From: Eledone cirrhosa | Taxonomy: Eukaryota | Length of the DNA: 64,000 nucleotides | Reading direction: 5' to 3' | Assembly (NCBI GenBank): GCA_964016885.1 | Contig: OZ024741.1 | Location: 147,436,001 to 147,500,000, forward strand | Shown here: piece after piece, positions 11,355-12,110 of the stretch | How positions within the stretch are numbered: position 1 is the stretch's first letter | Layout: each line of letters begins with the position of its first letter | Made by a program: the position numbers and the translations under genes | The notes under the pieces: generated by a model | Told to the model about the DNA's origin: nothing | The model's input: only the letters and a program-made list of their open reading frames with translations | Database searches by the model: none

Positions 11355-12110
11355 TATATGAATGTATATATAGTGTATTTTGCAATACACTGTATGCTTA
11401 ATTAAAAGCATTTCGAAGACCTTATACTATTGTTTTAGAGTAGTGACAGTCTCACTTACTTTAATTTTCAGCAAACAGGGGAGATAAAGCTGACAGGACC
11501 TGTTTCGCTAGAATATTTACTAGAATTCTATAAGAATCAAACATCCATGATTTTCAGCAAACAGGAGCAGTAGTTGGCTTTGATCAGCATAAAAAAATGC
11601 GAAACAGGGCCCTGTCAGCTTTATCTCCCCTGTTTGCTGAAAATTAAAGTAAGTGAGACTGTCACTACTCTAAAACAATAACATAAGGTCTTCGAAATGC
11701 TTTTAATTAAGCATACAGTGTATTGCAAAATACACTATATATACATTCATATATATATAGCTATTTCAGAGCACCAATTCTAATTTTCAATTTCTGCTTG
11801 ACCGGCAAACGCTCTGTATAATCAGTTCCTGATTATTTACTAGAATTCTATAAGAATCAAACATCCATGATTTTCAGCAAAAAGGAGGAGTAGTTGGTGG
11901 CTAGATAAGCATAAAAAATGCGAAACATAGATCTGTCAGCTTTATCTCCCCTGTTTGCTGAAAATTATAGTAAGTGAGACTGTCACTACTCTAAAATAAT
12001 AGCATAAGGTCTTCGAAATGCTTTTAATTAAGCATACAGTGTATTCCAAAATACACTATATTTACATTCATATATATATAGCTATTTCAGAGCACCAAAT
12101 CTAATTTTCA
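11355..12110 (+). mobile_element. Retrozyme-like element, ~320-bp unit (~1.9 tandem copies plus an inverted 5' arm), sister family of the 310-bp array
   Basis: tttactagaattctataagaatc occurs at 11516 and 11836. 11355-11508 is an inverted copy of ~11599-11757. Degenerate hammerheads lie at 11572-11620 and 11892-11941. It is homologous to the - strand of the 310-bp unit. Confidence 0.75.

Follow-up and report, generated by a model that had tools for sequence, protein, structure and literature searches.

Metazoan non-LTR retrozymes, in the accessible parts of the papers describing them (PMC7229834; Li et al., 2026, 10.64898/2026.07.22.740005), are tandem non-coding units of ~300 bp with one type I hammerhead each, for which mobilisation by Penelope-like elements (PLEs) is proposed, not shown, the PLE link of Li et al. 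(2026) being inferred from co-occurrence and pLTR similarity. The same parts of these papers define neither the structure recognised by the reverse transcriptase (RT) nor the start sites of copying, whereas here starts and a covarying RNA domain lying over them, referred to as the module, have been mapped. PLEs also carry hammerheads, of which a U3-A8 variant and a dimeric palindromic stem III have been described (PMC4209133). For PAc, a Poseidon element of Anolis, in vitro work identified the tail as the segment bounded by a pair of internal RT starts located in a stem-loop (Frangieh et al., 2024, PMC11167929).

The window analysed, 64,000 nt from the 3.0-Gb, (TA)n-rich genome of Eledone cirrhosa (GCA_964016885.1, contig OZ024741.1, 147,436,001 to 147,500,000), holds units of two families, A and B, which together with the subfamily A3 are by anatomy non-LTR retrozymes (PMC7229834; Li et al., 2026), tandem, non-coding and equipped with one type I hammerhead each. 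As in the accessible account of PAc (PMC11167929), two adjacent internal starts lie 3' of the hammerhead with the tail between them, here deduced from genomic ends only, and initiation would fall in a stem-loop with little target homology needed, the AT-rich targets of PAc being cut on both strands. Whereas the PAc region is situated in the first 172 nt of the ORF of an autonomous element, the module stands by itself in a non-autonomous RNA, as a domain that codes for nothing and shows natural covariation. As far as they are described in the accessible parts of Craig et al. (2021, PMC8557442), insertions of endonuclease-bearing PLEs likewise show an inverted 5'-truncated arm, a tail of 30-40 bp at one end and targeting of (TA)n, and the non-autonomous Chlamys and MRC1 elements are likewise multicopy and arranged head to tail; the 3' ends of non-autonomous Chlamys, however, are similar to those of their autonomous partners, whereas the module resembled none of four PLE termini tested.

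The element class and the PLE tail are already known; a search of the open-access literature brought up no description of an RNA domain with covariation at the start sites of PLEs or retrozymes. How the RT of a PLE chooses its template and its internal starts is the question on which the module bears. As the PAc signal overlaps the ORF, coding constraint hides RNA constraint there, while the signal of the module is non-coding, exists in natural variants in three subfamilies and comes with more than 100 mapped insertion ends that show where copying begins. An intact young candidate enzyme, the autonomous element G, is present in the same genome, so that a defined RNA (310 nt), a protein (G) and a target, (TA)n, make template choice and retrozyme mobilisation directly testable in vitro.

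Kinship of the units and their hammerheads

Table 1. Position of repeats, predicted RNA structures and retroelements in the window
Feature	Position	Strand	Remarks
Family A, inverted 5'-truncated arm	11359..11508	(-)	3' end is start site 1 (AUUCA), then (TA)n
Family A, direct arm	11511..12110	(+)	1.9 units (320 bp each), ending 3' at start site 2, then (TA)n
Type I hammerhead, family A	11576..11620	(+)	palindromic stem III; core here U3/C8
Four-way junction (predicted)	11678..11764	(+)	P0 11678-82/11760-64; P1 11697-11714; P2 11717-36; P3 11737-54
Start site 1, AUUCA	11745..11751	(+)	3' side of P3 loop, 11 nt before GCU-N7-AGC
Helix P4, AGAGC/GCUCU (predicted)	11768..11815	(+)	surrounds start site 2 (~11784-91) as well as hairpin P5 (11795-11807)
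Family B array	13988..17176	(-)	10.4 units of 310 bp; one hammerhead and one module per unit
Family B module copy taken into the alignment	16989..17150	(-)
Short inverted family B piece	17177..17251	(+)	5' junction of the B array
Element G, 5'-truncated copy of a young autonomous PLE	17252..18622	(+)	joined to the B array without TA between
RTE-like non-LTR retrotransposon	18961-22130		broken frames; label by reading translations
Two-ORF non-LTR retrotransposon	24540-30139		1204-codon endonuclease-RT frame; label by reading translations
Broken Hydra-type PLE	39936-42329	(-)	RT, CxCX5C linker; at least 81 genome matches listed
Broken PLE, RT and GIY-YIG	54227-56840	(+)	own hammerhead-like terminus; inverted arm ~53520-53800

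Families A and B and the older subfamily A3, which further genome searches recovered along with intermediates, consist of homologous units of 310-320 bp with a type I hammerhead in each, and no ORF of at least 120 aa is present within the A or B units. Family B copies are 99-100% identical across many contigs and the best family A matches 92-100%. The motifs that the first-pass annotation had singled out as a double hairpin common to two retrozyme families are present at 11687-11830 (+) and in every 310-bp unit (-), in both families on the hammerhead strand as it had stated, and a pattern built from the ends they share is matched exactly 20,328 times across the genome, its reversed control not once.

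These motifs align at ~78% over 149 nt (E 3e-28), and no other part of the unit is as well conserved as the module, whose identity between A and B is 77%. The remainder also aligns, at 58% identity and with a score of 19, where 300 mononucleotide shuffles gave at most 3, so A and B are diverged relatives, homologous end to end. The earlier view that the hammerhead arms share nothing beyond architecture fails accordingly, and one module common to unrelated ribozyme elements is not supported by families that are homologous throughout.

In Rfam 0 families reached the gathering score, so no described RNA family was matched, as the annotation had assumed, and none of the 47 weak matches (E<=1) in 11300-18700 covers the module. 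By its position, the module is nevertheless not beyond assignment, as had been stated, since it matches the 'tail' of PLEs, a region of 30-40 bp in the accessible parts of two papers (PMC8557442; PMC11167929). Outside the E. cirrhosa genome, 9 metagenome and 2 viral pattern matches were all due to chance, none of them scored with the module profile. A coding remnant was considered and rejected, as an 'AISEH'-like frame, open in B, stops at once in A and A3 (by inspection).

U3-A8 occupies the hammerhead core of A in 50 of 56 copies, C3-G8 that of A3 in 34 of 35; in A and B stem III forms a palindrome, or nearly one, and in A3 it is a short hairpin. Both family A hammerheads of the window, the one listed in Table 1 and a second with its core at 11902, are likely to be inactive, judging from the mutations in their cores. 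The family B hammerhead (CUGAAGA/GAAA) has a core that looks intact by inspection and a minimal palindromic stem III. Since its core and stem II, with U-U at the base, match those of the Hydra-type element C, a swap of the hammerhead core in B is possible. At one further locus (L285), a switch from C to A3 is found at the common hammerhead core.

Insertion ends and the predicted fold of the module

To locate the ends of copies, 136 de-duplicated 3' ends were mapped at loci L001-L194, with site 1 defined as AUUCA +0 to +10, as alignments run on through TA, and site 2 as +28 to +46 with the mode at +35/36. Site 1 accounts for 54 ends, site 2 for 62 and other positions for 20, so that 116 of 136 fall in windows that comprise 30 of ~315 positions; by family, either site was used by 48/57 ends in A, 44/53 in A3 and 24/26 in B, the 3' end of the B array of the window lying at site 1 beside (TA)n. 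Under a strict test, 85 of the 136 ends are succeeded by a TA run (A 37/57, A3 26/53, B 22/26). Most loci had been fetched through queries containing the module, one fetch favouring site-2 ends, and family B loci fetched with the whole unit showed the same ends as the module-query loci.

Insertions in (TA)n usually comprise two back-to-back arms, of which the inverted one is 5'-truncated. Where each arm had a sited end (34 loci), 30 combined site 1 with site 2, three had site 2 and one had site 1 on both arms, the 30 of 34 giving a binomial p of 6e-6 against 0.5; the family A insertion of the window (11359-12110) is such a 1+2 case. The spacing of ~35 nt matches the PLE tail of 30-40 bp present at one end only (PMC8557442, accessible parts), and the two-site pattern, as read from these sequences, bears the mark of a Penelope tail, with reverse transcription begun at two internal points. 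Among the functions envisaged by the first-pass annotation, recognition or priming by a helper RT thereby gains direct genomic support, because the insertion ends map to two sites within the module, while a ligation element and an internal promoter gained none.

Site-1 ends also bear on priming. Of 19 such ends in A3, eight run from AUUCA straight into target TA, one keeps the internal G and 10 were unclassed; in B, the internal C is kept in 6/10 and dropped in 4/10. As some of these ends drop the internal G or C, extended pairing with the internal TA tract cannot be a requirement, and long primer-template pairing on this tract was rejected as unnecessary on account of the A3 ends that do without the internal G.

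The double hairpin turned out to be too small a description of the fold. RNAalifold, run on 8 natural copies with no structure supplied, predicted a four-way junction P0-P3 followed by P4 enclosing P5, with a conserved GGUCUUC linker at 11687-93 (+) within the junction and one private mismatch in P0 of the family A copy of the window. Circular family B RNA gave pairing probabilities of 0.58 for P0, 0.43 for P1, 0.89 for P2, 0.80 for P4 and 0.94 for P5.

Subfamily majority sequences were derived from 103 distinct full-length module copies (A 76, A3 11, B 16). Among 34 pairs compared, eight differ between the A, A3 and B majorities, four of them compensatory, three preserving G-U and one broken, whereas private changes in the same stems are pair-breaking in 158 of 219 cases and compensatory in two (Fisher p 0.001 and 9e-6). 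In a pair-count test 96% of cells were paired, against 26-48% in slid registers. The covariation score was reached by 0/500 shuffles and the number of doubly changed pairs by 20/500, on a base of three lineages, that is four compensatory events, and with helices picked on the same sequences. P0, P4 and the putative pseudoknot are nearly invariant and so display little or no covariation; GACC in P5 could form this pseudoknot with GGUC in the linker, a pairing possible in 8/8 aligned sequences and free of any variation.

The compensation in stems noted earlier is borne out, three double substitutions in two stems retaining their pairing, and the idea of a selected, non-ribozyme RNA module draws support from the pairing kept between subfamilies in the predicted helices. 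The proposed exchange of one stable tetraloop type (GNRA) for another (UNCG) does not hold. A stable UUCG tetraloop has a C-G closing pair (cUUCGg). The loop of hairpin 2 is GCAA in 99 of 128 A instances, GCCA, which is not GNRA, in 49 of 69 of the third subfamily, A3, and UUCG closed by U-A in 43 of 46 B instances, so no class of stable tetraloop is kept.

A further recurrent feature is GCY...RGC, which in A, A3 and B begins 11 nt past site 1, in the form GCU-N7-AGC, and again, as hairpin P5, at 11-12 nt past the modal site 2. In element G it starts 12 nt after site 2, with a chance of ~0.004 (5 occurrences in 4.6 kb of G, 4-nt window), and it is absent from G site 1 and from both sites of the Hydra-type element C, giving 1 match in 4 sites. 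The local GCU-N7-AGC hairpin has a probability of 0.08 in free B RNA, as it competes with P0 and P4, and would hence need a protein-induced switch. That the hairpin sets the start register is a lead, not a result.

Readings of the module

The module is probably an RNA signal at which an RT/endonuclease of the Penelope type loads on hammerhead repeats and begins copying; a copying-start signal is likely because the domain is conserved and copies mostly end at two fixed sites inside it. By analogy with anole PAc, as far as accessible (PMC11167929), a dimer of the PLE protein would bind the folded domain and cut both strands of the TA repeat, and one cDNA would be primed at each of the two internal sites. 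Each cDNA would be copied 5'-ward through the hairpins and the hammerhead, and onward around a multimer or circle, and the two would then join head to head to yield the two-armed insertion. More weakly, it may be supposed that the register is set by the small GCY...RGC hairpin found 11-12 nt 3' of each site, and that the predicted four-way junction serves as the binding platform.

Stringent LINE/SINE pairs share 3' stem-loops, and telomerase RNA has template and pseudoknot domains. The module would likewise be a structured RNA that loads an RT in trans and fixes the start of copying, but, unlike those RNAs, with internal initiation at two sites, with copying through the structure and with neither a poly(A) end nor a repeated template, the pseudoknot being putative. 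A bolder and rather unlikely version sees in the module a free-standing, telomerase-RNA-like scaffold which positions a Penelope RT dimer and hijacks G in trans by shape alone; the scaffold would consist of the four-way junction, the pseudoknot and the duplicated register hairpin, with no sequence borrowed from G. If true, the module would be the first natural RNA recognition element defined by covariation in telomerase's sister group, and its 160 nt would make a portable tag with which any RNA could be written into (TA)n.

A rival explanation, which we consider improbable, is that the hairpins persist because they stabilise a (circular) RNA, aid its export or shield it from nucleases, the starts being set only by short motifs and by an unpaired stretch rich in U that share the region by chance. 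The whole unit does fold better than shuffles (z -3.0 and -3.8), the hammerhead arms keep long stems too, and the best covariation resides in P1 and P2, which lie 5' of both starts and would be copied rather than primed on. Conservation, however, peaks over the start region (77% versus 58%), unpaired invariant words included, and site 1 is located at the loop-stem edge of P3, a helix with one pair broken in B but a compensatory change in A3; PAc likewise starts in a stem-loop, according to the accessible text (PMC11167929).

That the module acts instead as DNA, as an internal promoter or endonuclease site, with paired changes brought about by template switching between the inverted-repeat arms, is very improbable. 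The tail DNA of the D. virilis element is needed for endonuclease recognition, as cited in the accessible text of PMC11167929, and the P3 region is TATA-like. Against this, all three changes that preserve G-U pair on the hammerhead strand only and are mismatches on the opposite strand, which points to the module acting as RNA rather than DNA. Moreover, alignment inspection showed that the octamer-like letters of the A loop have no counterpart in A3 and B, the insertion targets are (TA)n and not the module, and no tRNA-like gene was detected (ARAGORN, 0 genes). The least credible proposal takes the conserved 3' half for a 5'-UTR intron remnant of an ancestral Penelope (branch-like CUAAU, pyrimidines, CAG) kept by the binding of splicing factors: PLE pLTRs can contain an intron, as stated in accessible parts of PMC8557442 and PMC4209133, GUAAGU follows just after the hammerhead in A and A3 (11649-11656) and CUAAU...CAG is kept in A, A3 and B (11783-11826), but B, the youngest family, is without the donor word, and P1-P3 and the two end sites would be left unexplained.

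Element G as candidate helper and neighbouring repeats

G is ~99% identical across 40 scored copies, with open frames of up to 1302 codons (stop to stop), and has end sites of its own in (TA)n, used by 16 and 14 of 34 ends. Its protein matched no Pfam family; from motifs read against the accessible parts of PMC8557442, it may be classed as 'Neptune/Nematis-type'. Loci L266-L270 show an asparagine-rich N-terminal repeat, an own hammerhead and a frame that begins inside the tail, like PAc. The copy in the window comprises a short inverted piece, the end of the GIY-YIG frame (17396-18067) and its own hammerhead, and terminates at its own site 2 beside (TA)n; an older truncated copy is situated at 45081-46100, with G-type 3' ends at 44870-44990 and 47020-47090.

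Across the genome, 5 matches were obtained to a pattern requiring the G end, inverted, no more than 300 nt from the module, of which only 2 were clean joins: G site 1 is joined directly to B site 2 at L272, and 45 unexplained bases separate G site 2 from B site 1 at L273; TA intervenes between G and the module unit at L271, A has inserted into G at L274, and L275 is ambiguous. Two joins come from outside these matches, B site 1 meeting G site 2 in the window and A3 site 1 being combined with a G-like site 2 at L227. Head-to-head joins with a G or G-like tail were thus 1+2 in 4/4 cases (window, L272, L273, L227; p ~0.06). A control with the Hydra-type element C, of similar abundance (up to 36,106 versus 34,371 motif copies), gave 11 matches with 2 direct joins to A or A3 and 0 to B, neither of them clearly 1+2. 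Since 4/4 has a p of ~0.06 and deletion between neighbouring insertions could produce such head-to-head joins, G, the most likely helper, is put forward only tentatively, as one that would recognise a mimic and not a copy of its own terminus.

Copies of the module in the termini of autonomous PLEs, which the first-pass annotation had suggested as a route to the helper, were not encountered among the elements and loci searched. None of 30 Hydra-type PLE loci contained the module; all 14 genome matches to a pattern of module plus ORF start were retrozyme copies; of 68 matches in a search for variant continuations, 30 were fetched and nearly all run on as retrozyme sequence; and a covariance model applied to 10 loci revealed no module-bearing autonomous element. 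In local alignments of the module with the termini of G, C and two other PLEs and with a 467-bp retrozyme, the best of 15 tests was equalled by 7/300 shuffles, hence no significant match. Whereas the accessible text of Li et al. (2026) draws on pLTR similarity, similarity to the pLTR of an autonomous partner was not found here in four PLE termini and three targeted genome searches, which cover a fraction of PLE families.

The Hydra-type family C (L121-L141; L133:1440-2700) has a monomeric hammerhead and two end sites 68 nt apart. Other repeats adjoin the insertions as well. The end of an unnamed AT-rich repeat, probably a further (TA)n-targeting family, borders on module-bearing insertions at three loci (13500-13630 of the window, L061 and L164), and two repeats adjoin A3/A copies (L083:514-1414; L157:186-1060), namely a dimer of the 467-bp retrozyme, which has a canonical hammerhead and an octamer word, and a tandem repeat of 421 bp.

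Family B words (16376-16995) also occur, at 0.63-0.93 of the words sampled, in 20 sequencing runs from 17 studies and 18 labelled organisms, which is most simply read as cross-contamination from a repeat of very high copy number, horizontal spread being possible; no RNA run with family B was among the runs listed. In runs X5, X10 and X19, family B forms one contig of 340 nt at a depth of 17-34 and with 4 differences, the contig of X19 showing one variant not in run X1. Its length is 310+30, as expected from the assembly of a closed circle.
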